In this document: positions 31,001 to 60,182 of the stretch, in pieces
Layout of the letters: each line of letters opens with the position of its first letter
Numbering within the stretch: position 1 is the first letter of the stretch
Virus record (IMG/VR): IMGVR_UViG_3300045999_013174
Strand: one strand, 5' to 3'
Origin: a virus
Length of the DNA stretch: 64,000 nucleotides
Program-made: the position numbers and the translations under genes
The notes under the pieces: generated by a model
What the model saw: the letters and a program-made list of their open reading frames with translations, nothing else
Databases searched by the model: none
Told to the model about the DNA's origin: nothing

Positions 31001-34000
31001 TTATGACCTCAATGAGAAGAACCGGCTTAACCCTGGCGGAACCCGGATGGTTTACCGCTTGCCGGGTAACAGGGTTATAAAAGTGATTGGCGATAACACC
31101 CAAGCTGGTCGGGTTCAGAATCTCGCAGAAGGAATTGAGGATTTTACGCCTATGGTTTACGAGTCCGGGCTGGACTATGTGATTGTAGAGGAGCTTCCTC
31201 CGCCTTCAAGCGCAAATTTCAAAAACTTCGCCTCTTGGCTTAGCAAGACAAAGGCTGAGGACTGGATAAAGAAGCCTGAAGCGTTCCGAGAAAAGCTTGC
31301 TGAGTTTGGTCTTGAGAAAATACTTGACAAAGGATATTCTCTTGCTTATGGAGATATTACTGCGATTGAGAATTGGGGAGAGCGCGACGGCAAGATTATG
31401 CTTGTCGATGCGGGAAGCCTTGTTGCCGGATACCAAGTGTCGGGCAGTCTTGATAAGGCAGAACAAGTTCTCGCAGAGAAGACTGTTGCGACCAAGGAGG
31501 TGTTGGCTACAGACGCTCCGAAGGCTACGGTTTTGTTCCAAGCTGCGGCCCCCTTGCCGCCTTCTCCATGGCAGAATCTTATTGCTACGAACCGCCAGGC
31601 TCACAAGGCGGTTGTCAAGATGACCAAGAAAATCATCAAGGCTAACGGGAAGGTCGCAAATGATGTTGCTAATATCCTTATCGACACAATAGCTCAGGGG
31701 TTACCTGATATGCCGCCAATGCCAAAAGACATAGCGTTTGATTATGTAATCAAGGGTATGTCTGAACTTGGCATTCAGCCTGATTATACAGGTATGGCGG
31801 TGCAGCCTGATGAGATTGAATTGAGTGTTGGAGACCTCAATGTAAAGACGGTTTTCACCCGGGTTCAGCAATCAAAGAAAGTTTCCGGCCGGCTCCGCCA
31901 GGCGCTTACCCGTGCGGGAAGGCTTTATGACGTAGAGAACCAAGGCCTCGCTTCTGAGCTTGCTAATGCTATTATTGAAGAGTATGGCCCAAGGGCTGCT
32001 ATGGCGATGGTTAAGGCCGGAATTATAAAAGGGGCGACAAGCTCATTTATTTACGGTGCCGTCATTGATAAAATGTCTTCTGAAGGCTCTAAATATTCAG
32101 AGATAGCAGAGGTTATAAATGACTTTGCGCTACATCAGCGTGAGCTTGGTCGCGGGATAGCCGCCCTTAACGAGGTTTATGTAAGAAGCCCACAGGGTCT
32201 GTATTACATGGCCCTCCACGCGATGAATCAAACAAATGCTGTAGCAACTGCCTCGGCTACCGGGGCGGCCACAGCTCTTTCCGGTCAGCTTGCTGCAGCC
32301 CAGCAATCCGCAGCGGCTACCGTGGCTACTAATATTGCTCGTGGCGCAACATCCGGAACCAGCAGGATATCAACCGACATTCCGGATTTGATAATCATGG
32401 GTCAGCAGGAGAAGATGAAAGCCTTGAAAAAAGAGGCGAATGATATCCTCCGTCAGCTCAAAGGGCTCGGCTCTCAACTTCCATTCGCGGCTCCTACAGG
32501 ACGAATCCAAGCCCTTCAATCGCTTGGCAAGCTCGACCTTGTTGTTTCCCTCGGTGCAAACTTTATCAAGAGGGGCAATGTTCAGTTTAGTATTTGGGCT
32601 GCGCGGTTTAAGAAGTCACTATCATCAGCAGGTATAACCTTTGACAAAGATGACTTGCAATACGTTTGGGAAACCGCCGAAGTTAAGAAGACTCTTCAAG
32701 ATACTCTTGATTCGGGCCTTGCTCCTCTCGACGGCCCAATCAGGGATTACCTTCGCTCTACCCAAACGAAGCTTGCTGCTATTGTGCGGAAGCGGGCTGC
32801 CGACCGGACGATAAGCCTTCAGAATTTGGCTGACGATATTGCAGCCTCTCTTGCTGTAGACCCTGTGGTTGCCAGCCGTCTCTCTGCCGCTATTCTTGCC
32901 GACATTGACAAGATGTCTAAGGCTATGCAGCAGAAAATTGTTGAGAAGTTTCATAAGAATCTTACTAAGAAATTCGGCGGCAACAAAGAGGCTGCCGAGG
33001 CTTCCTTAGCAGACTTGGTGAATCTTGTCAACATGAACCAGGCCAACCCGCATGACATCGCAGAGGCGATAAAATTTGCTTTTGGCGGTGTTTCTATGTC
33101 GGACTCTCAGTCGGACCAGTTTATCAAGCTTGCCGAGGATGTGTTCAAAACCCGGGAGGGCTCTCGAAATCGTCAGATTGCTCAGAAGCGCCTTGTTGAG
33201 TTTACCAACAGTTTATACAAAACCAAGTTTGGAGACTTGTTTTGGATTTTCTTTTACCCAAATCAGCTTGCCGGCATCAGTACGCAAGTGGTAAACACCA
33301 TTGGAAACTTCTACAACACTCTCGCTCAGATGCTCATTTATGCTCACACAGACATACGCAATGCTGTCCGTATGGGTCTTGGGACATCTTTGATTAATTC
33401 ATTGTTGGAGCTTTCTCAGCAGGTTGGCACAGGGCTGCAGAGCGCGAAGCTTGTAATGGAAACGGGTATCGCTGGCTCCGGGAATAAGTATGCAGACCTT
33501 AAAGCCGCCACTAAGAATTCAAAAACCATCGAGGATGACCTTGGTTATAAGATTCAGAGTTTTAGCGGGCTTTCTACAGCGGAGGTGTTCCCTGTTGCGG
33601 TACGAAACCTGTTTAACGGATTCATGCTGCTTAATCAAGCGTTCTTGAAGTATTTCCCGGTGAGGTTTATGACCGCTGTGGATAATGCCTTCTATCAGGC
33701 TACATACGAGAAGTCTATCCGCAGACAGTATATCAACGAGCTTTATGAGCAAGGGTTTCGTGGAAAAGCGTTACGCGATGCTGTATACGAAGCAATGCAC
33801 GGAACTGATACGGATGTTCAGACCGCTGCTCAGGAAGCGTATGCTGAAATGGTCGACGCGCAAATCCCATTCTTCGACAATCAGAAGCTTGCGGATTATA
33901 TCCTGGCGAAACAGCTTAGCGGTGAGATTAAGGCTGCTATAAATAGTGCTATTGGCGCGGGTTCTGGAACTTCTCCTTTGCCTCCTCTCGCCGAGCTTAT

Positions 34001-35819
34001 GAATATGCTCGGGTCAGAGACCACTGGGCCTCTAATGTCTGCTGCGTTAATACAGGCGGACCCGAGTATTTTGGCTGAGCGAAGCTTGTGGTCTACGGCC
34101 GCGAAGGTTGCCGTAAGGGAGATTATTCACTCCCGCTCGATTCCTGAACACATTGCCGACAGGGCTTCGCGCCAGTCGATGTATGTGACATTGAAAAATA
34201 CGCCCGAAGGGTTTCTTGGGGTTATTGCCGCCGTTACGTCGATGGCCGTAAATACATTCGCTCCGATTCGATTCCTGGTTCCGTATGTTAATGTCCCGTT
34301 CAATATCGCCAATATGTTCCTCGATTGGTTCCCGCTAACCTCTGTGCCCCGCGCAGCCGGCTTGTCGCTATCGAGGATGTTTGGACCAACGTTCCTGCAG
34401 CGATTTGGTGTTAAGCCATCATCGTATTCTGAGGGAACGGCGGTTCAGTATGGACTGGAATACGACCCTGTTATGCATCAGGAGCAAAAGGTCAGGGCTA
34501 TGTATAGTACCCTTATTGGTATCTCGACATTTGCATACTACGTCTCGAAAGCACTTGGGGATGATGAGGAGGAGGAAGGCCCGGCAATAACCGGAGGTCT
34601 CTTCAATGTGAGATATGACCGCGCCGGGAAGACCCAAAAGCCTTACACCATAAAGATATTTGGCGAGGAGTTCTCTTATGAGAACACGCCTTTATACCTC
34701 GTCCTTGCCTCGGTAGGCAACACGTGCGACATAATCCGTCAGCTTAAGGCTGAGGGTGCTGAGCAAGGTGGTGTGAGTTTCGATGCTTTAATAAGCAACT
34801 CGTTGACCTCAATGACTTACACAGCGTTGTCCTTGTTTGATGCCTTGCCTATCAGTGGCCTCGAGGGGATAATGGGGATTCTCTCTTCAAGGGAGAAGGG
34901 GGCTGCGTCCATGGGACTTAAAGAAAAGGCTCTTTTGAGAACAGCCCAGGGACTTATAAAATCCCTGCTTACTCCGGTTCCTATTGTGGGCAACAACTTT
35001 GTGAAGCAGCTTGAGCAATTTAATGACCCACGCAAGTACGTTAATGATGTGTACGACCCTGAGGTGTTTCTTGCGAGAGCAACTGGTCACGTATTGATAA
35101 ACACCCTGTCAGACGGGTCTCTTGTTATGAGAGATTATCTTGGACGCGAAGTTGTTCAATATCCTGGCGCAAGGAATATCAAGACTCTTGAGATTGCTGA
35201 GAAGTCCGACATTGACCGCTACATCTACTCTAAGCATCTGAATTTTATTCCGGTATCAAAGGATTCCGAGGTTGCGGTTATTGCTAAGGGGCCAAATGGT
35301 CGGGAATCCGGGACCCTTGTGAAGCTGACTGATGATGTTCAGCTTTTTAACGAAGCTTACACCGCCGGTGGTACTATTATGCGAAAGTATCTTGGTGAGT
35401 TTCTCCCTCTGCTGAAGTCGCTTAACGACACTCAGCTTGAGAGAGAGATTATCAACCAGGCGAATGAATGGCAGCGAAAGTATGTTATTGAAAAAATAGA
35501 AGACGCCGAGTTTTCCAAAACGAAAGAAGGCTTTAAGGCCTCTTCGATTCCTGACGATATTTCTGTTGTGTTCTCCGGCTGGGGGCGCAACCGCGAATAT
35601 GCCGATGGGGTTACCCGGATTTCCGAAAATGGAAGTATCCTAAATATCCTTCGGGATATTAATAAATCACCGGTTTCCGCAAGGGAATCTAAGCTCAGGG
35701 ATTTGCGCGCTGTTCTCAATGTTAAGACCGAAAGCGAGAGGGTTAGGGATAAGATTCGGGAAGAGGCAGAACGTCGAAACTTAAATGTCAATAATTTGGA
35801 CATCGTAGTTCCTGAATAA
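22026..35819 (+). CDS. giant multidomain virion protein (4,597 aa), putative ejected polyvalent protein
   Basis: Single stop-free 13.8-kb frame. Coiled-coil N-terminal quarter. Pro/Ala linkers, including (PA)n at 26395-26487. A small domain repeated three times. HExxH...E zincin motif at 30060. Gly-loop/VDAG kinase-like segment 30920-31450. Multiple hydrophobic helices 33240-34900. Confidence 0.8.
   Translation: [4597 protein letters not shown]
26395..26487 (+). repeat. coding (Pro-Ala)n low-complexity tract inside the giant gene
   Basis: Translates to [31 protein letters not shown], a linker. A second P/A-rich linker lies at about 30590-30683. Confidence 0.7.
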
Positions 35820-38741: not shown

Positions 38742-39071
38742 ATGAACCTGGATACCCAGCAATTAAAAACTCGGTTGTTTTATGCTGACGCATGCCAGGC
38801 TAATGTTGCTCTTAAGGCGATTGAGGCTGATGCTAAGGGTGAGTATGACCGGTATAAGCACCTGATGAATGTTATTCGGGGTTTGCATTGGAGAATAGCT
38901 TCTTTGAGGTGCTTGCAGATGAGTGATGGGGTTTTGGTAAATGAAGATGCCCAGTGCCTGAGTACCGCTGATGTGTACTCAGTGCTGGATTGGATTAATC
39001 AGGTTTGCGGCACAGAATGCTGTAGCTGCACCTCTGTTCTTGAAGAAAACATCCCTCCATTGCTAATGTAA
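38742..39071 (+). CDS. hypothetical Cys-rich protein
   Basis: ORF track starts at a TTG at 38715. The ATG at 38742 directly after the upstream stop is preferred. C-terminal CGTECCSC. Confidence 0.35.
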   Translation: MNLDTQQLKTRLFYADACQANVALKAIEADAKGEYDRYKHLMNVIRGLHWRIASLRCLQMSDGVLVNEDAQCLSTADVYSVLDWINQVCGTECCSCTSVLEENIPPLLM

Positions 39072-41896: not shown

Positions 41897-42307
41897 ATGA
41901 GCGGCATTAAATTCTGCGGGCAAACACTGGTGTGTACTCCAATAAAGTACACGCTCGCCTGTTCTAAGAAGGAATACCAAAAGGTTCTTCAAGGAATAGG
42001 CTATGAGGATTGGCGCAAAGAGGCTTTTACCCCGAACGAAACCACAGCATGCGTTCACACATTTACATCCGACAGCGGGCAGACAATAAAGATTGTGTGC
42101 ATCGACCATCAAGCCACAAAGGATTGGCCCATAGAGGAGGCTTATGCTGTGCTTGTTCATGAGGCGGTGCATATATGGCAAGACACAAGAGTCCAGCTCA
42201 ATGAGGCGCAGCCGAGCAGTGAATTTGAAGCGTATAGTCTGCAGAATATTTGCGCCGAACTTTTTTACCTTTACTCGAACTTTGCCAAGGAGCAGCAGTC
42301 GCCCTAA
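41897..42307 (+). CDS. small HExxH protein (putative minimal zinc metallopeptidase)
   Basis: ORF track start 41879 is a TTG; ATG at 41897 preferred. Contains VLVHEAVHIWQD (HExxH) with downstream SEFEAY as possible third ligand. Confidence 0.4.
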   Translation: MSGIKFCGQTLVCTPIKYTLACSKKEYQKVLQGIGYEDWRKEAFTPNETTACVHTFTSDSGQTIKIVCIDHQATKDWPIEEAYAVLVHEAVHIWQDTRVQLNEAQPSSEFEAYSLQNICAELFYLYSNFAKEQQSP

Positions 42308-42345
42308 GCCCAGCCTAACCCACTAATAAAACGAGGACAAATAGT

Positions 42346-42729
42346 ATGAGCGTAGCAAAAAAGACTAACCCTAAGCTTTGGGAAGCGGCTAAGTCTAAAG
42401 CAAAGGCCCGGATGGGAGGGAAGCACTCTGCCAGGGCGATGCAGCTGGCGGTGTCTATTTATAAAAAAGAGGGGGGCGGATTTGAAGGAAAGAAATCTTC
42501 ATCCAATAAGTTATCCAAGTGGACAAAGCAAAAGTGGCGGACGAAGAGCGGGAAGCCTTCAGGTGAAACCGGAGAGCGGTATCTCCCTGAGAAGGCTATC
42601 AAAAACCTGACGAGCGAAGAGTATGCGCAAACAACAGCGGCCAAAAGAAAGGGCTCAAAAAAAGGGCAGCAGTTTGTAAAGCAGCCAAAAAAAATTGCTG
42701 AAAAAACAAGGCGATACCGCAGTTCATAA
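42346..42729 (+). CDS. small lysine-rich protein
   Basis: 127 aa. N-terminal PKLWEAAKSKAKA..SARAMQLAVSIYKKEGGGF resembles a widespread uncharacterised small-protein family (recalled, not searched). Very basic C-terminus. Confidence 0.45.
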   Translation: MSVAKKTNPKLWEAAKSKAKARMGGKHSARAMQLAVSIYKKEGGGFEGKKSSSNKLSKWTKQKWRTKSGKPSGETGERYLPEKAIKNLTSEEYAQTTAAKRKGSKKGQQFVKQPKKIAEKTRRYRSS

Positions 42730-42767
42730 TAAACATCTTACCTTTCATAACCAAAACAAATCCAATC

Positions 42768-42998
42768 ATGCCAAACAATCCAAAACCTAAATTCCCTAAA
42801 ATCGACAAGAAGCTTGGGCCTCATTTCGGCGCCGGAGCCATCGGCACCTTTGCTGCCGCGTACGCTCCCGAAATCGGAGCTGCCGTTAAAAGAGGCGCCA
42901 AGAAGGCTAAAAAGGCTATCAAGAAGACTGTTTCAAACATTAAAAGCAAATCTGCCAACAGGCGGACGGCCGATGGTGTGGTGAAGCGCAAAAAGTAA
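42768..42998 (+). CDS. small lysine-rich protein
   Basis: 76-aa ORF, about 28% Lys/Arg. Confidence 0.4.
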   Translation: MPNNPKPKFPKIDKKLGPHFGAGAIGTFAAAYAPEIGAAVKRGAKKAKKAIKKTVSNIKSKSANRRTADGVVKRKK

Positions 42999-43017
42999 CC
43001 GGATACTCCGGCTGCAA

Positions 43018-43037
43018 TCAATCACAATCAATCACCT
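43018..43037 (+). repeat. tandem direct repeat 2 x AATCAATCAC
   Basis: GCAATCAATCACAATCAATCACC immediately upstream of the 43-aa lysine-rich ORF. Confidence 0.4.
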
Positions 43038-43050
43038 AATCTCAAAAACC

Positions 43051-43182
43051 ATGTACAACAACTCAGACAAAAAAACAATGCCCCTTGCCAAGAAGAAGAC
43101 ACGCAAGACAGGCAGCAAAAAACCTGTAGCGCAAAAAGGCAAAATGGCTAAAAAGGCCATGGCTATGCGCAAAATGAAGTAA
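43051..43182 (+). CDS. very small lysine-rich protein (43 aa)
   Basis: ATG-initiated 44-codon ORF below the ORF-track cutoff (MYNNSDKKTMPLAKKKTRKTGSKKPVAQKGKMAKKAMAMRKMK). Preceded by a tandem 10-mer repeat. Confidence 0.3.
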   Translation: MYNNSDKKTMPLAKKKTRKTGSKKPVAQKGKMAKKAMAMRKMK

Positions 43183-43202
43183 CCAGCAAACCAAGCAGAC
43201 CG

Positions 43203-43469
43203 ATGGCCCGCAACAAATTAGCAGGTAAAGGCACCGGCCGGTACAATGAAAGTACCGGCCGTGACTATTCGTATGACAAGAAGTATCAGGCGAAGAAAAA
43301 GCAAAAGAAGTATCGCGCAAAACTAAACAAGGCCAATCGAGACAGCGGCACCTATGGAAACGGAGACGGTATGGATAAAAGCCATACTAAGAGCGGAAGG
43401 CTCGTTAATGAGAAACAAAGGTGGAATAGGGCTCGTAATGGAGCAAACGGAAAATCAACTAAAAAATAA
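43203..43469 (+). CDS. small basic protein
   Basis: 88-aa ORF rich in K/R/N/G. Confidence 0.4.
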   Translation: MARNKLAGKGTGRYNESTGRDYSYDKKYQAKKKQKKYRAKLNKANRDSGTYGNGDGMDKSHTKSGRLVNEKQRWNRARNGANGKSTKK

Positions 43470-43474
43470 CCGTT

Positions 43475-43957
43475 ATGAAAACAGATGCGATTACTTTGTC
43501 AAGGATTGAGCTTATGCACCCGAAGGTTCGAGAAGAGGTTCGGCGCATGTATGAATCAATTTGCCAGGCTTTAACCGGTAGAGCTCTTTGCCGATTCACG
43601 CACACCTTAAGGACATTCGAGGAGCAGAATGCATTATTTGCACAAGGGAGAACAGCTCCCGGGAAGAGGGTCACTAACGCCCGGGGTGGAGCGTCGTTTC
43701 ACAACTATGGGCTCGCCTTTGATATTTGCCTTATTGTTGACGGGAAAACCGCCTCGTGGGACATGAAGAGCGATTTTGACCAAGATAGAAAGTCTGATTG
43801 GATGGAGGTTGTTGCTATCGCAAAGTCATTTGGGTGGGAATGGGGCGGAGATTGGAAGAAATTCCCGGATGCTCCGCATTTCCAAAAGACCTTTGGTTAT
43901 ACAACCAAAGAACTCATGGGGCTACGCAAGGCGAATGCGACATATCCTGATATTTAG
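43475..43957 (+). CDS. endolysin, peptidase M15 family (L-alanyl-D-glutamate peptidase type)
   Basis: SFHNYGLAFDI (H-x6-D) and DAPHFQ (D-x-H) zinc-ligand motifs typical of VanY/M15C phage endolysins. Confidence 0.8.
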   Translation: MKTDAITLSRIELMHPKVREEVRRMYESICQALTGRALCRFTHTLRTFEEQNALFAQGRTAPGKRVTNARGGASFHNYGLAFDICLIVDGKTASWDMKSDFDQDRKSDWMEVVAIAKSFGWEWGGDWKKFPDAPHFQKTFGYTTKELMGLRKANATYPDI

Positions 43958-44005
43958 CGCTCACTAAAGATGTCAAAATATAGTGCGTTTTAGGTATTAT
44001 CTCTT

Positions 44006-47155: not shown

Positions 47156-47183
47156 GGGTTATTCATCCAATAATCGACTACTA

Positions 47184-47245
47184 AAACCAAGGCTATTCAT
47201 TATTGTTTTCTTGGTTTCTTTAGGCAAATCTGCCTCTAAAAAAAT
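47184..47245. terminator. candidate bidirectional terminator region at the convergent strand switch
   Basis: Two hairpins, AAACCAAG...CTTGGTTT and AGGCA-aatc-TGCCT, flanked by T- and A-runs between the converging gene blocks. May overlap a 57-codon minus-strand ORF. Confidence 0.3.
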
Positions 47246-47455
47246 GGTAAGCTTATTTTCAACAAGCCATTTAGCCAAATGCTTATAGGCTAAATAGTTT
47301 TTTAAGGCAGGTAGTTTATCCTTTGCGGTCATATTTCTGTTTTAATCCTTACTGAGACCCGCCAGCGCGGTAAGCGGTGTTTATCAACCATTCGGAAATC
47401 CCGAACAGTTGGGGTGCAATTTTGTGAAGCGAATAAAGTGGCGCAAACACGGTAG

Positions 47456-47737
47456 TTAGGCGAGATTGCCAACAGCATCCTCAACCAATTTACGGATTTT
47501 CTTTTTGACTGATTTTTTAAGTTTCCTATACTCATCTTGGTAGTTATCAGCACACCAAACTTCATTAACATATTTTACAGCTTCATTTTTAAAAACCGTA
47601 GCATACCATCGCATTTTAAAGCCATTTGCAGTTACCATTACCATATATGTAGTTTGGCTTGAAGAGAAAGCAACCTCGCCTAACAGCACATTTGCAATAG
47701 GCGGGGTTTCGTGGTTTAATGATGTTTCGTGTTCCAT
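47456..47737 (-). CDS. small protein, MEHE-family paralog 1
   Basis: 93 aa starting ATGGAACACGAAAC (MEHET). N-terminal 30 aa paralogous to the gene at 48645-48848. Start codon bracketed by inverted repeat arms. Confidence 0.5.
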   Translation of the reverse strand: MEHETSLNHETPPIANVLLGEVAFSSSQTTYMVMVTANGFKMRWYATVFKNEAVKYVNEVWCADNYQDEYRKLKKSVKKKIRKLVEDAVGNLA

Positions 47738-47806
47738 ATAAAATTTTATTTTAAGTTGAATAATTCGTTTTCAAAAGTCCCGCCCATCGCAAATCTGCAA
47801 AACGTT
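47676..47806. repeat. imperfect inverted repeat (arms about 47676-47712 and 47771-47806) bracketing the start codon at 47737
   Basis: + strand ..CTAACAGCACATTTGCAATAGGCGGGGTTTCG.. versus the reverse complement of ..AAAAGTCCCGCCCATCGCAAATCTGCAAAACGTTAGTGGC..; arms share TAAC..ATTTGC.AT.GGCGGG..TT. Confidence 0.5.
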
Positions 47807-48107
47807 AGTGGCTATTGTAGGGACGCAGCCATCCCATACGAAAACCGTGTAACATTTTTTGTGTTGTTTCTTGTTCGTTATTATCTTCCAAGTAAGTGTA
47901 ATTCTGTTTTATCCATTGACCGCTTACCAAGTCAAGAACCTCATACAAATCTTTATGCTGTAACTTGCTTACAAAAGCGATAGCATCTGTATGTGAATGT
48001 TTGTAATGCTGTTCAAATTCGGGAGAACAACAGCCGCTAACACACGTTTGGCGCAAGCGGGGCTGACGTGCAAACATCAACTTTAGTTTTTCAATTAATC
48101 TTTTCAT
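47805..48107 (-). CDS. hypothetical Cys-containing small protein
   Basis: 100-aa ORF. Start bracketed by inverted-repeat arms 48030-48068 and 48127-48170. TAAATTTG box upstream. Confidence 0.45.
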   Translation of the reverse strand: MKRLIEKLKLMFARQPRLRQTCVSGCCSPEFEQHYKHSHTDAIAFVSKLQHKDLYEVLDLVSGQWIKQNYTYLEDNNEQETTQKMLHGFRMGWLRPYNSH

Positions 48108-48170
48108 GTTATATCAAATTTAGTTTTTCAAAATCCCCGCCTGTCGCCAAGCGTGGGAGCGTTAGCAGCA
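48030..48170. repeat. imperfect inverted repeat (arms about 48030-48068 and 48127-48170) bracketing the start codon at 48107
   Basis: + strand GCCGCTAACACACGTTTGGCGCAAGCGGGGCTG versus the reverse complement of CCCCGCCTGTCGCCAAGCGTGGGAGCGTTAGCAGC. Same motif family as 47676-47806. Confidence 0.5.
48116..48123 (-). promoter_or_regulatory. -7 box TAAATTTG (minus strand) upstream of gene 47805-48107
   Basis: Minus strand reads CTAAATTTGATATAAC-ATG. Confidence 0.3.
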
Positions 48171-48173
48171 ATT

Positions 48174-48530
48174 TTAAGGCTGACGTTCATCAATATACTT
48201 TTTGCTCGACATGACACCAAATGTAAATATGTTACGAAGAGCTTTGCTAATCAAAAATCCTTCTACAATTTTCAAATCTTCACTTTCTTTAGGTATGTAA
48301 CTTTCTCTAAATATGACCTTTCCATCAACACCTACTTCAACAAACCAAGCCATTTTTCTTTCTGTTGGAATTGATTTAGTTGTGCCTATGTGCATCATTG
48401 GTAAATAATAATCAGAAGGTTTTAACCCGCTAAAAAATTCAACGGTTCTTCTTTGGTTTGTTTCTTTTCGCTCATTCAATTCCCTTTCAAGATTTGAGCA
48501 AAGGTCTTGTAAAATACGTTTCTGTTCCAT
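48174..48530 (-). CDS. hypothetical protein
   Basis: 118-aa ORF starting ATGGAACAGAAA (MEQK). Upstream intergenic region is a 100-nt imperfect palindrome. Confidence 0.45.
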   Translation of the reverse strand: MEQKRILQDLCSNLERELNERKETNQRRTVEFFSGLKPSDYYLPMMHIGTTKSIPTERKMAWFVEVGVDGKVIFRESYIPKESEDLKIVEGFLISKALRNIFTFGVMSSKKYIDERQP

Positions 48531-48540
48531 AAATAAAACT

Positions 48541-48641
48541 GCTGCTAACAGCGTGTTTATGCAAGCGGGCGGACAGCTTGCTGTTAATAATTAAGTTCGT
48601 GCTATGCCCGCCTGACATAAACACGCAAAACGTTATGTGCC
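48541..48641. repeat. 100-nt imperfect palindrome of the same family (arms 48541-48580 and 48601-48641)
   Basis: CTGCTGCTAACAGCGTGTTTATGCAAGCGGGCGGACAGC / GCTATGCCCGCCTGACATAAACACGCAAAACGTTATGTGCC. Shared core CATAAACACGC and GCGGGC. Confidence 0.5.
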
Positions 48642-48644
48642 ATT

Positions 48645-48848
48645 TTAAGACACCTTTGCAATCTCATACACTTCATCAATAAAATGATAATGTGTTGCAA
48701 ATTCTACCATTGCATCATTTAAGCTACTTGCTTCTATATATACCATCAAATCTTTACCCATACTTCGGTATTGGAATAAAAAACGGCACATAACAGCCGT
48801 TTGCTGCAATGGCGGGTTCTGTGGTGTATTTATGCTTTCGTGTTCCAT
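48645..48848 (-). CDS. small protein, MEHE-family paralog 2
   Basis: ORF track gives 48645..49037. Internal ATG at 48848 (ATGGAACACGAAAG, MEHES..) matches paralog 1 at nucleotide and protein level. A perfect palindromic terminator lies between 48848 and 48910. Confidence 0.45.
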   Translation of the reverse strand: MEHESINTPQNPPLQQTAVMCRFLFQYRSMGKDLMVYIEASSLNDAMVEFATHYHFIDEVYEIAKVS

Positions 48849-48874
48849 TGGAATTTTATTTGAGTTTTCCTGAG

Positions 48875-48900
48875 AAAAGGCTCCCCTAAGGGAGCCTTTT
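48875..48900. terminator. perfect palindromic bidirectional terminator-like hairpin
   Basis: AAAAGGCTCCC-CTAA-GGGAGCCTTTT, flanked by A- and T-runs, between two minus-strand paralog genes. Confidence 0.6.
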
Positions 48901-48909
48901 GGCTGTTTT

Positions 48910-49173
48910 CTAAAAAAGATTCCCGTTGTTCCATTTCGCCTCCGTTTTATCCGGGTCTCTGATGTACTCAAAAAGCCGGTCCAAAAGTTCGTCTTTGGTG
49001 CTGAATGCAAAAGCTTGGCATCCCACTCGGACGACAAATCCTCTGCTCAATTCCTCGATGCGCATGTCCTTGATTTTGTTTGCTGATAGGGCTCGGTCAG
49101 CTACATTTACTGGGGTCGGCTCTCGTAAAGTCTCCAAGAGCGTTCCCCCACGCCCGTCCTGTTCATGTTCCAT
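48910..49173 (-). CDS. small protein, MEHE-family paralog 3 (divergent)
   Basis: ORF track gives 48910..49206. Internal ATG at 49173 gives MEHEQDGRGG...; shares the conserved start ATGGAACA(T/C)GAA. Confidence 0.4.
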   Translation of the reverse strand: MEHEQDGRGGTLLETLREPTPVNVADRALSANKIKDMRIEELSRGFVVRVGCQAFAFSTKDELLDRLFEYIRDPDKTEAKWNNGNLF

Positions 49174-49216
49174 TATGTTAGATTTGGGTTTTACAAAGCC
49201 GCCCAAGGCTATGAAG

Positions 49217-49441
49217 TTACTGTTCGCTAAAAAGACTCAATTGGGTATACCTCCTTCTCTTTCTGCACCTGCAGTCGCGCAGCGTTACGGTATTATCAGC
49301 TATTACTTCAATCTTGTCTCCTCTTCGGAAATATCGACGCAGCCGGCGAAGCCAAGATTCGTCAGTATAACAAAGCGGCTCAGCGCATGCGGCAAAGATT
49401 GCTCCGCAGCATTTTCGTTTAACGACTTGAATCATACGCAC
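49217..49441 (-). CDS. hypothetical Cys/Arg-rich small protein
   Basis: 74-aa ORF. Confidence 0.3.
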   Translation of the reverse strand: MRMIQVVKRKCCGAIFAACAEPLCYTDESWLRRLRRYFRRGDKIEVIADNTVTLRDCRCRKRRRYTQLSLFSEQ

Positions 49442-54061: not shown

Positions 54062-54544
54062 TTATAAACAATCCGAACTTGGCTCGGGTATTATCCAGTC
54101 CATATTAAGTTCATAATACTGACGGATAGCCTCGAGCCTTTCTCCGAATTCTTTGGTGTTGTAGAGCGTCGTTGAGGTTGGGATATTAATCGTCTCTCCG
54201 GTCGCTCCATTGAAGATTGTCACACAGAAAAAATTCGCCTTATTGAACTCATGCATCTGCTGCTTTGATAGTTGTAGCCCGTGCCTTTCCTTGTGCGCTT
54301 TAATCTGCTCTGCGACAACAACGCCATAGTAATAGGCGTTTTGAGCAAGGGAGCGCTTATCGCTATCAAAAACGCTAAGTTCCATCACCAATGTAGAGCC
54401 TTTGAATTGCGATACGAATTCATTAAAAGCCTTTCTGTTGATGATTTTAGCAACCCCCGTGTCGCTATCGACACGGAGGAAGAATCTGTTCTGAAAGCTT
54501 GACAGCTCCTTAATCGACCTCATTGGCATCAGGCTTAAGCTCAA
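54062..54544 (-). CDS. NinB/Orf-like recombination mediator
   Basis: 160 aa. SDKRSLAQNAYYYGVV resembles the lambda Orf (NinB) core ERNRSLDQNRKLWACLGDV, from memory of the family. Confidence 0.45.
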   Translation of the reverse strand: MSLSLMPMRSIKELSSFQNRFFLRVDSDTGVAKIINRKAFNEFVSQFKGSTLVMELSVFDSDKRSLAQNAYYYGVVVAEQIKAHKERHGLQLSKQQMHEFNKANFFCVTIFNGATGETINIPTSTTLYNTKEFGERLEAIRQYYELNMDWIIPEPSSDCL

Positions 54545-55310
54545 GCTGGCGGGCTGGAAGTTTGTTCAAGATATTAATCTTTCGCTCAGCGAAAACCTCG
54601 CTACGAACTTCTGAATAGAGGCTGTTTGAGAGAATGTTCTTAACAGTGCTACCGTACCACGTTTTGTTCCTCTTGGAAGGAATACCCCTACGGGAAAGTT
54701 CGGTGGCGATATACCCCTGCCCGCGCCCATTAAGGGACATAGAGATTATCTCTTTGATGATTTTAATCTCCCCTTCGTGGCGAACAAGGTTACCATCGGC
54801 GTCTGAGACGAATCCATAAGGGTCTTTGCTGTACTTTTTGCGTGACCGCTTAAGCTGCGCCATAGCATCGGAGGTTCGCTCTGAAATACGGGCTGATTCA
54901 AATACGGCAAAGGAGAGCATGAGCGTAAAAAGTAGCCGGCCCGTAGAGGATTGCGTATTGACAATGTTGCCGGCGACATCCGTTGTGTAAAGGCTAATGC
55001 CTTTTGAAGACCATTCATCGACAGTTGTCAAGCCGTCAACATCATTACGAAAAACGCGGTCAACCCGAAGTCCTATAACCCCTACAACATCGGGGTTTTC
55101 GCTAAGATATTCAAGCATCTTGCCGCCCTCGGGCCTCTCTTTAAGAGGTTTGCGCCCGGAAACATCGCTGTCGGCAAAGATTTTTACAGGGAAAACATTA
55201 AGGAACTGGCAAAAGCTGTAAATCTTTTGGTGCTGAACCTCTGTGGATAGGTCTTGGTCGTCAGTGCTTACCCGTATGTAAGCAACAACTTTTTTGATTG
55301 GCTCAATCAT
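54510..55310 (-). CDS. serine recombinase (resolvase/invertase family; possible integrase)
   Basis: N-terminal VVAYIRVSTDDQ catalytic-serine motif, then VIGLRVDRVFRN. 266 aa, shorter than typical large serine integrases. Confidence 0.8.
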   Translation of the reverse strand: MIEPIKKVVAYIRVSTDDQDLSTEVQHQKIYSFCQFLNVFPVKIFADSDVSGRKPLKERPEGGKMLEYLSENPDVVGVIGLRVDRVFRNDVDGLTTVDEWSSKGISLYTTDVAGNIVNTQSSTGRLLFTLMLSFAVFESARISERTSDAMAQLKRSRKKYSKDPYGFVSDADGNLVRHEGEIKIIKEIISMSLNGRGQGYIATELSRRGIPSKRNKTWYGSTVKNILSNSLYSEVRSEVFAERKINILNKLPARQLELKPDANEVD

Positions 55311-56641: not shown

Positions 56642-56664
56642 TTTTGCTCATTTTAAGGGTTTGT

Positions 56665-56746
56665 GGTCAGGACAGGACTCGAACCTGCATCAGAGGTGGC
56701 AGAGTTTACTACATCACCTTGCTTTATCCAATTACGCCACCTGACC
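56665..56746 (-). tRNA. tRNA-like gene with aberrant anticodon arm (identity undetermined)
   Basis: Minus-strand sequence GGTCAGG..AGGTG[16 nt]CACCT..GCAGGTTCGAGTCCTGT CCTGACC A. Perfect 7-bp acceptor stem, canonical GGTTCGAGTCC T-arm and a 5-bp anticodon stem, but a 16-nt anticodon loop instead of 7. Confidence 0.45.
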
Positions 56747-60109: not shown

Positions 60110-60182
60110 TAGCTTCGGCAGGAATCGAACCTGCATCTTCCGTTTAGGAAACGGACATTCTATCCATTGAACCACGAAGCCT
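60110..60182 (-). tRNA. tRNA-Arg (anticodon CCU)
   Basis: Minus strand folds by hand into a cloverleaf: AGCTTCG TG GTTC AATGGATA GAAT G TCCGT TTCCTAA ACGGA AGAT GCAGG TTCGATT CCTGC CGAAGCT A. 7-bp acceptor, D-arm, perfect 5-bp anticodon stem, loop U-U-CCU-A-A. CCA not encoded. Confidence 0.75.

Follow-up and report, generated by a model that had tools for sequence, protein, structure and literature searches.

A probable integron-like cassette array in a tailed Bacteroidota phage

We analyzed a 64-kb stretch of viral DNA (IMG/VR record IMGVR_UViG_3300045999_013174, hereafter the window), which belongs to a tailed phage of Bacteroidota. Positions 47455-49240 of its minus strand hold small genes separated by imperfect DNA hairpins, and we interpret this segment, with a probability of about 0.7, as an integron-like array of mobile gene cassettes carried by a phage. 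An integron-type mechanism is suggested because, on the non-coding strand, the order is recombinase gene, attI-like site, and array, the sites are hairpins, the crossover falls at a GTT/AAC core, and the ends of each unit are complementary. The array of the window itself is an orphan, similar to a CALIN (cluster of attC sites lacking integron-integrases): it has three intact and two decayed units, with the decay at the distal end, it terminates in an attI-type junction, and it lacks a recombinase. The evidence comes from the window and from other viral and metagenomic loci compared with it, which are designated by L-numbers (L020, L063, etc.).

Five small open reading frames (ORFs), U0 to U4, are encoded between 49240 and 47455, followed by a 57-amino-acid (aa) ORF and then by a convergent block of plus-strand genes. 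An initial annotation of this segment, made from the sequence alone, had described four consecutive genes, one of them set off by a perfect palindrome. The ORF U3, a member of the same array, in fact intervenes between U2 and U4. The palindrome is an imperfect hairpin, E2, with an 11-bp perfect segment, and far from being a singularity it is one of three complete copies (E2, E3, and E4) accompanied by two decayed ones (E0 and E1; Table 1). The complete copies fold alike: they have a basal CTAAC/GTTAG box, a conserved G:T pair, a 4-nucleotide (nt) bulge on the 5' side, an imperfect stem of ~20 bp, and a GGCGGG/CCCGCC cap under a loop of about 37-75 nt, with fold z-scores between -3.4 and -4.1. 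Compensatory changes affect 9 of the 27 pairs among these three copies alone. The decayed copies were aligned with E4 and with L034. E1 retains the loop (with ATGGAACA at 48848), the 3' arm, and a GTTAT box (48794-48790), and has a terminator-like hairpin (48875-48900) in place of the 5' arm. In E0 a TAAC...GGGCGGC half-site and a ATGGAACATGAA loop are still discernible, and the 3' box has decayed from GTTAG to GACCG.

We built a covariance model, R1, from E2-E4. It supersedes a strict regular expression, which had matched a single copy in the window and none in L001-L008. In an alignment of 105 distinct copies, 91% of the cells are paired, double-sided changes number 657 vs 210 in shuffles, and the covariation score is 0.587 vs 0.165, dropping to 0.06 or less when the partner is slid by 1-3 columns; as this alignment was fitted to the model, the covariation figures lean towards structure, but the margin is still very large. 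The elements span ~90-160 nt and their box consensus is (A/C)TAAC-G ... T-GTTA(G/T). Two G:T pairs are almost invariant (100/105 and 95/105), and in 89 of 104 copies the fold of the coding strand is more stable than that of its complement. The element matched no Rfam family at the gathering thresholds, where the window yielded only its two tRNAs.

A unit runs from one (C/A)TAAC box to the next and consists of a structured DNA site with the cargo ORF immediately downstream. The ends of such units are complementary to each other: the ~15 nt that follow GTTA are reverse-complementary to the ~15 nt that precede the TAAC at the end of the same unit. This pairing reaches at least 10 of 13 positions in 26 of the 42 units, as compared with a mean of 6.4 for the flanks of the same hairpin and of 6.6 (sd 1.7) for the ends of other units. 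Position 11 systematically shows a G:T, and the box variant GTTG/CAAC is specific to its unit. All four units of the window fit the rule, with 11-13 positions out of 13; for instance, the start of unit 3, GTTAGCGGCTGTTG, matches its end, CAATAGCCACTAAC, at 11 of the 13 scored positions when the conserved G:T is counted as a match. Homology between unrelated arrays is bounded in the same place, with 97 left ends exactly at the T of TAAC, and some long shared blocks extend from TAAC to TAAC (1,281 bp at 99.8% between L022 and L026, 356 bp between L024 and L028). Own-end pairing and breakpoints in the TAAC box thus give these units what is expected of cassettes, namely boundaries within the core site and complementary ends.

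The window itself provides one example of transfer. Its segment 48635-48161 (the TAAC of E2, the hairpin, U2, and the TAAC of E3) is 100% identical over exactly 475 bp to L063 and L064. These loci come from two other metagenomes and their flanks are unrelated to the window; the unit stands there alone, between ...TTTTGAT^TAAC and CTAAC^TACCTGC (^ marks the junction). Because of this perfect identity elsewhere, we conclude that at least the U2 unit has moved very recently. A second example is given by L083 and L084, which are 97-99% identical around a homologue of U4 and differ by one unit (bounds ...TAAC^ and ...CAAC^). The extra unit sits between ...CTCGCCTAAC^ and ^C(C/T)ATTTATAGG, and its own end reads ...ACGCCAAC.

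In L023, the array is directly followed by a gene for a 263-aa tyrosine recombinase (Pfam PF13495 and PF00589). Arrays were found in 14 of 26 loci picked solely for encoding relatives of this recombinase, and the others mostly lack any appreciable upstream sequence. The 62 elements in these 26 loci are all on the recombinase strand and nearly all upstream of the recombinase. The control loci (n = 19, 315 kb) have 2 elements, both in one locus (Fisher p = 0.001). In all but one of 17 inspected loci the last unit ends with ...TAAC (or CAAC) 45-65 nt before the recombinase ATG, and this includes three of the four loci without detected arrays (L035, L038, L054). What follows the junction is not G and a hairpin but a clade-specific sequence, TAAC^TA(C/T)(C/T)ATATA... 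in one clade and TAAC^ATCTTTCTT.CCGCACTCTT... in another, and this sequence would behave as expected of an attI site. The relatives have this conserved attI-like sequence after TAAC, and the window keeps only the TAAC^TACC junction. The latter is of the type that adjoins the recombinase gene in other arrays (compare TAAC^TACCATATAAC in L034, TAAC^TACT in L043 and L045, and TAAC^TACCTGC in L063 and L064), with no recombinase gene next to it in the window.

By its similarity profile, the L023-type recombinase belongs to the Xer/IntI clade. Its best NCBIfam match is XerA, with 169 bits for a cut-off of 220, and the integron integrase model TIGR02249 scores 150 bits in two stretches for a cut-off of 265. 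The best matches in the PDB are XerA (4a8e) and then VchIntIA (2a3v). The IntI-specific insertion is missing, the protein having 27 aa where VchIntIA has 75.

Relatives of this recombinase with ~40% identity are annotated as 'integrase' in cultured phages, namely the Polaribacter phages Freya_1-10 and Leef and the Cellulophaga phage Ingeline. The genomes of Freya_1 and Freya_10 (MT732463 and MT732472; L060, L086-L088) have flanks that are 100% and 99.7% identical and are distinguished by a block of 4,921 bp that comprises twelve small genes. The insertion point is precisely ...TTGTTTACAAC^ACCCCTATAACAACAATAAG..., 45 nt ahead of the integrase ATG, with the junction ...ACAAC^ACCCCTATAACAAC; the block starts with G, ends with ...TTGTTGCTAAC, and contains units that obey the own-end rule (GTTAGCAGTAGTTTA ... 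TAAATTACTGCTAACG). The attI-like site of Freya reads ACAAC^ACCCCTATAACAACAATA. Across the ten isolates, genome size ranges from 43,978 to 48,920 bp and the integrase is found at seven different offsets. Members of one cultured species differ by 0-12 small genes at a CAAC/TAAC box located 45 nt upstream of the integrase ATG. The sites of Freya and Ingeline are not detected by R1 and were recognized by junction inspection alone. The paper on Freya takes the integrase as a sign of possible lysogeny (PMC8776804); the 'integrases' of Freya, Ingeline, and Leef may instead be cassette recombinases.

A previous study reported 17 CALIN in phage genomes, including that of Polaribacter phage P12002L, which carries methyltransferase cargo and one site of which was recombined experimentally by IntI1 (Qi et al. 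2023, PMC9892861). In this genome (NC_028924, L081) we found weak R1 matches at 29992-30074, 30893-30973, and 38862-38954, on the gene strand, in the gaps between methyltransferase and Mom genes. They read GCTAACG...hairpin...TTGTTAGG. Because these weak matches are on the same strand and lie between methyltransferase genes, the CALIN of P12002L is probably a short-loop relative of the element family of the window.

The family is found in many Bacteroidota phages, usually next to a small recombinase of the Xer/IntI type. An exact pattern derived from the conserved positions matched 14 contigs of IMG/VR, and R1 revealed, in dozens of viral contigs, arrays with as many as 11 copies, all on one strand. 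The pattern also matches, as arrays, the genomes of Flavobacterium, Algoriella, Cyclobacteriaceae, Chitinophagaceae, Paludibacter, and other Bacteroidota. In three loci (L082-L084; JGI 3300050213, 3300050718, and 3300051198) an array with the U4 homologue is placed mid-genome, between lysis genes (amidase) and an ERF/DnaB replication module. No recombinase was flagged near it in these loci, and its unit content varies by sample.

We then turn to the proteins, which the initial annotation had taken for a paralogous, rapidly diversifying family. It was right about the ATGGAACA starts of U4, U2, U1, and U0 (47737, 48530, 48848, and 49173, minus strand), and these are clustered: five of the six occurrences of the motif in the window lie within 1.45 kb, when 2.2 are expected across the whole 64 kb. 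The fifth, at 48927-48934 (minus strand), lies within the 3'-terminal part of U0 in another reading frame and starts a 34-aa ORF that crosses the terminator hairpin; this copy may be what is left of another decayed loop. The family itself does not survive comparison of the five proteins. BLASTP finds only residues 1-14 of U1 and U4 (43% identity) and 'MEHE', and no similarity among U0-U4 once the hairpin-encoded leader is trimmed. The N-terminal stretch said to be shared does include a resemblance of U4 to U1 (MEHETSLNHETPPIANVLLG vs MEHESINTPQNPPLQQTAVM), which stops at residue 14. None of the five proteins has a Pfam match, and they share no Pfam family.

The N-terminal likeness is a matter of DNA: it comes from the repeated recombination element, and the cargo proteins are unrelated. 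They look alike at the N-terminus because their first ~15-25 codons run through the 3' arm of the hairpin and the GTTAG box. The peptides 'PPIANVLLGEV' and 'QPRLRQTCVSG' are the translated 3' arm and GTTAG box, and the 3' arm also encodes 'PPLQQTAVM'. The same type of leader precedes methyltransferases and other unrelated proteins in other arrays. Of 67 long ORFs, 53 have an in-frame ATG in the hairpin loop, vs 28 of 134 frames used as controls (p = 2e-15), and such ORFs occur in each of the three phases relative to GTTA. The hairpin travels with the downstream ORF, and therefore the loop ATG is in frame with the cargo. In the window, the ATG is in the loop for U4 (47737), U1 (48848), U0 (49173), and U3 (48107), the cargo of the latter having no in-frame ATG until near its end, and is just past the hairpin for U2 (48530).

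These observations bear on the choice of start codons. The suspicion that the starts at 49037 and 49206 in the automatic list of ORFs are too long is supported, and the shorter ATGs at 48848 and 49173 are favored. We found 21 metagenomic homologues for U4 and 73 for U2, none of them annotated. They begin at the Met equivalent to that of the window and not upstream of it; this Met, which corresponds to 48530 in U2, is nearly invariant among the U2 homologues, and longer database versions merely read back through the hairpin arm. MEHE, which had been expected to be conserved, is not conserved among the U4 homologues. Their leaders vary (METK, MKTELNNNEK, MNDK, VETK...) by loop changes and compensated stem changes, and their cargo is 84-97% conserved from LLGEVAFSSS onward.

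To characterize the cargo at large, we scanned 67 large ORFs from array-bearing loci, not every one of which was confirmed inside a unit, and identified 13 N6_N4 methyltransferases, 3 C5 methyltransferases, Mom, a radical-SAM protein, SpoU, ThyX, and YopX. By these domain matches, cargo outside the window seems to be dominated by DNA methyltransferases. The initial annotation had suggested that the small genes of the window are anti-defence or host-takeover genes. In favor of anti-defence, units of this accessory locus are gained, lost, and swapped between phages, and DNA methyltransferases and Mom-type proteins are cargo elsewhere; U0-U4 themselves have no Pfam match. The locus may thus be a fast-changing accessory region serving anti-defence.

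The proposed mechanism is the following. A small phage-encoded tyrosine recombinase of the Xer/IntI clade would recognize the hairpin folded from the coding strand, which the two conserved G:T pairs and the bulge would render asymmetric. Strand exchange would take place inside the TAAC box. Units would be excised as circles, with their own 15-nt ends paired, and would be re-inserted at another hairpin or at the attI-like site directly upstream of the recombinase gene. The same element usually provides the start codon of the ORF, in its loop, and the first ~15-25 codons, through its 3' arm and GTTAG box. As the window has no recombinase, any present-day mobility of its units would have to be driven in trans.

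Several observations weigh against this interpretation. We found no tyrosine recombinase in the window (tblastn at E<=1; Pfam and PHROGs on 20 large ORFs), which therefore lacks the intI gene of a complete integron, and none in the adjacent region of its close relative L065, which has Prim-Pol and small ORFs there. Activity of the window's own array is accordingly putative, as no recombinase is encoded there. Arrays without a nearby recombinase are also found in L070 and L073-L080. The linked recombinase, where present, is devoid of the IntI-specific domain, which in true integrons reads the extrahelical bases, and the strict integron 7-mers (RYYYAAC/GTTRRRY) are matched by only 6 and 12 of 104 sites (6-12%). 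A role at the RNA level would likewise be compatible with the conserved G:T (G:U) pairs and with a start codon placed in the loop. Finally, the E2-type core is ~90-99% identical in at least 15 otherwise unrelated contigs (window 48530-48652 and copies in L020-L034), unlike the other hairpin cores, which diverge freely via compensatory changes. It has many different upstream partners and, beyond about 20 nt, many different downstream ones, and the rule that a core always travels with its ORF does not fully explain them. This pattern may result from crossover on both sides of the hairpin or from a special role of this variant.

These points have to be set against what other explanations would require. 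That the ORFs are paralogs of one rapidly diversifying family of small proteins with a conserved MEHE N-terminus is very improbable: they do share the ATGGAACA starts, and U1 and U4 are 43% identical over residues 1-14, but nothing is shared past this point or after trimming of the leaders, the stretch in common is encoded by one arm (3') of a DNA hairpin that shows compensatory changes, leaders of this type also stand before methyltransferases and unrelated proteins, and the homologues of U4 keep the cargo and not the leader. It is unlikely that the hairpins act mainly at the RNA or regulatory level (as structures in intercistronic mRNA, platforms for translation initiation, or promoter modules) and that the modules are shuffled by homologous recombination without a dedicated recombinase, in the manner of the PeSL (promoter early stem-loop) cassettes of T4-type phages. 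The latter, described by Arbiol, Comeau and Krisch in 2010, are reportedly intergenic repeats made of a promoter and a stem-loop that flank small accessory ORFs in hyperplastic regions, allow modular shuffling, and presumably act via homologous recombination. Unlike the phage hairpin family, PeSLs are not known to have a linked site-specific recombinase, complementary ends of their own, or a crossover restricted to a box. Such a regulatory role would agree with the conserved G:U-compatible pairs, the better fold of the coding strand, the start codon in an A-rich loop, and the many arrays without a nearby recombinase. Yet homologous recombination would not create own-end complementarity, the stems of neighboring copies are too divergent for it, the breakpoints fall within a 4-nt box and are not spread across the ~100-nt repeat, and there is a strong, oriented linkage to one recombinase family together with a conserved attI-like junction. 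A single element may also have a dual role, as DNA site and as translation start.

The array could alternatively be an ordinary fragment of a bacterial integron, i.e., a CALIN from a host chromosome with attC sites used by the host IntI. The GTTA/TAAC core, the hairpin, and the cassette signature are hallmarks of integrons, and the phage CALIN reported with methyltransferase cargo, including the one in a Polaribacter phage with a site recombined by IntI1 (PMC9892861), are in line with it. We nevertheless consider it quite unlikely, given the low fraction of sites with the strict 7-mers, the reversed polarity (the hairpin precedes the ORF, and on the coding strand the crossover is in the 5' box), the linked enzyme, which is phage-encoded, Xer-like, and devoid of the IntI insertion, and the units, which are common to phages and not to identifiable bacterial integrons. 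As for the serine recombinase encoded in the window (54510-55310, minus strand), we do not regard it as the cassette enzyme because it has no homologue in any of the 26 recombinase-selected loci. The chance that it moves the units is minimal, even if its gene lies 5 kb upstream on the same strand and arrays in L027 and L022 have a homologue (30-36% identity) at a distance of 0.6-2 kb: the substrates of serine recombinases are double-stranded, with a 2-bp core, rather than hairpins, and the gene is part of a recombination/replication module with the exonuclease and NinB. This 266-aa protein, with Resolvase and Recombinase domains, could be a lysogeny integrase or something else. Two further ideas were discarded in the course of the analysis. 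We had first assumed an integron-style crossover at GTTAG, with the core owned by the upstream cassette, and the breakpoint data argue against it. A transposon or miniature inverted-repeat transposable element with terminal inverted repeats was rejected, as the spacer hairpins are conserved, structured, and move together with the ORF, and insertions occur at one site adjoining a tyrosine recombinase.

The integron-like interpretation, which we favor, implies both similarities and differences with known systems. Like integrons, the phage family has same-strand arrays of small and mostly single-gene units, imperfect hairpin sites with a pair of inverse core and core (...TAAC / GTTA...), complementary unit ends, a crossover inside the core, and a tyrosine recombinase assigned to the Xer/IntI clade at one end of the array, beside a simple attI-like site, giving the order intI-attI-array on the non-coding strand. 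It differs from them in being carried by phages, in its 263-aa recombinase without the IntI-specific insertion, and in its boxes, (A/C)TAAC-G...T-GTTA(G/T) instead of RYYYAAC...GTTRRRY. In integrons attC is downstream of the ORF and cassettes are transcribed away from intI, whereas the phage hairpin is upstream of the ORF, carries the start codon and an N-terminal leader, and the cargo is transcribed towards the recombinase gene, which is downstream and co-oriented. The asymmetry of the phage site also comes from a 4-nt bulge and two conserved G:T pairs and not from the extrahelical bases described for integrons.

Elements that depend on Xer, such as CTX-phi with its folded single-stranded attP and the pdif modules of Acinetobacter plasmids, likewise involve a recombinase of the Xer type acting on a folded or inverted-repeat site and modules bounded by inverted sites. 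The phage family, in contrast, has no evident 28-bp dif-like site (no dif model search was made), and it has a recombinase encoded by the element and hairpins of ~90-160 nt in tandem arrays. Among the closest published systems are the phage CALIN: virulent phages carry these groups of attC-like sites, with no integrase and with DNA methyltransferases as cargo. They have 2-4 sites per phage, were found with bacterial attC models, and were proposed to exchange with bacterial integrons (Qi et al. 2023, PMC9892861). The array of the window is integrase-less too, with three complete and two decayed sites within 1.8 kb, called with our family-specific model R1 and not with the standard attC model. 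That study (PMC9892861) describes no dedicated phage recombinase, attI-like site, reversed polarity, or coding role of the site. Phage CALIN are already published; the literature searched, which leaves most subscription journals out, yielded no description of a dedicated recombinase, of an attI-like site, of a reversed polarity, or of a layout with the start codon in the hairpin, and this absence is not proof.

The surroundings of the array are those of a phage genome. The window encodes a portal protein, a tail fibre, two giant ORFs of 1,499 aa and 4,597 aa, an exonuclease, NinB/Orf, an SPFH protein, the serine recombinase, and two tRNAs. The 4,597-aa protein is encoded by a single ORF (22026-35819, plus strand) in the structural block and has a 3,425-aa counterpart in L070, a different array-bearing phage. 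The tRNA genes (56664-56746 and 60110-60181, minus strand) are in the minus-strand early/replication block. In the composition profile, the AT skew is 0.28 at 42001-44000 and at most 0.13 in absolute value elsewhere. Searches of the region against the INPHARED phages with megablast and blastn gave no match and no close relative. Searches for relatives in IMG/VR via the SPFH protein, the exonuclease, the 246-aa and 116-aa proteins, and the serine recombinase returned only distant or unrelated contigs, with no synteny. Look-ups with the 116-aa and SPFH proteins gave only short Logan contigs that terminate inside the array.

Table 1. Units, hairpin sites, and adjoining features of the array (positions in the window)
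Feature	Position	Strand	Description
Degenerate E0 and ORF U0	48910..49240	-	E0 at about 49235-49085; U0 48910-49173, 87 aa, MEHEQDG...; from sequence and alignment, fold not significant (z = +0.6)
Unit 1, decayed E1 and ORF U1	48632..48916	-	U1 48645-48848, 67 aa; weak R1 match, 15.3 bits; own start/end complementarity 12/13
Unit 2, E2 core and ORF U2	48161..48635	-	TAAC to TAAC; U2 48174-48530, 118 aa, MEQKRIL...; 475-bp block identical in L063/L064
E2, short-loop complete hairpin	48530..48652	-	TAAC 48635-48632, GTTAG 48549-48545; 37-nt loop without ATG
Unit 3, E3 core and ORF U3	47804..48164	-	U3 47805-48107, 100 aa, MKRLIEK...; own start/end complementarity 11/13
E3, complete hairpin site	48022..48182	-	TAAC 48164-48161, GTTAG 48041-48037; U3 ATG (48107) in loop; fold z = -4.1; R1 171.6 bits
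Unit 4, E4 core and ORF U4	47455..47807	-	U4 47456-47737, 93 aa, MEHETS...; ends ...CTCGCC-TAAC (47458-47455); own start/end complementarity 12/13
E4, complete hairpin site	47665..47825	-	DNA fold z = -3.4; R1 164 bits
E4 layout		-	...CACTAAC (47807-47804)-G, 4-nt bulge, ~20-bp stem capped GGGCGGG/CCCGCC, 72-nt loop with ATGGAACA (47737), T-GTTAG (47684-47680)
Terminal junction of the array, TAAC^TACCGTGTTTGCG	47440..47458	-	T after TAAC, not G and hairpin; TAAC^TACC at 47458-47451
57-aa ORF past the array end	47159..47332	-	Boundary of the minus-strand block; convergent plus-strand genes beyond

Arrays of this type have practical consequences for the study of phage genomes. Gene callers mis-set the starts of the genes in them, homology searches with hairpin-encoded N-termini yield false 'families', and assemblies break at the near-identical copies of the hairpin. 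The cassette platform can be tested in culture with Freya and its Polaribacter host.

At a broader scale, Bacteroidota phages might carry an integron-type platform of their own, with a minimal Xer-like recombinase without the IntI domain, an attI-like site, and hairpins doubling as translation start and leader, that shuffles anti-restriction and other accessory genes between phages. It would be a separate lineage from the bacterial integrons, either invented independently or representing an ancestral form, and the window would hold one orphan array of this platform; we give this proposal even odds. The system puts the requirements of integrons to the test, as it has no IntI-specific domain, a reversed polarity of the site, and a recombination site that is translated, and it links the Xer recombinases with the integron integrases. 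Bacterial integrons are now seen as stores of anti-phage defence genes. If our interpretation is true, a cassette platform on the side of the phage, with DNA methyltransferases and small genes of unknown function, would allow a fast exchange of counter-defence genes between phages and would partly explain the 'hypervariable small-gene' regions of phage genomes.

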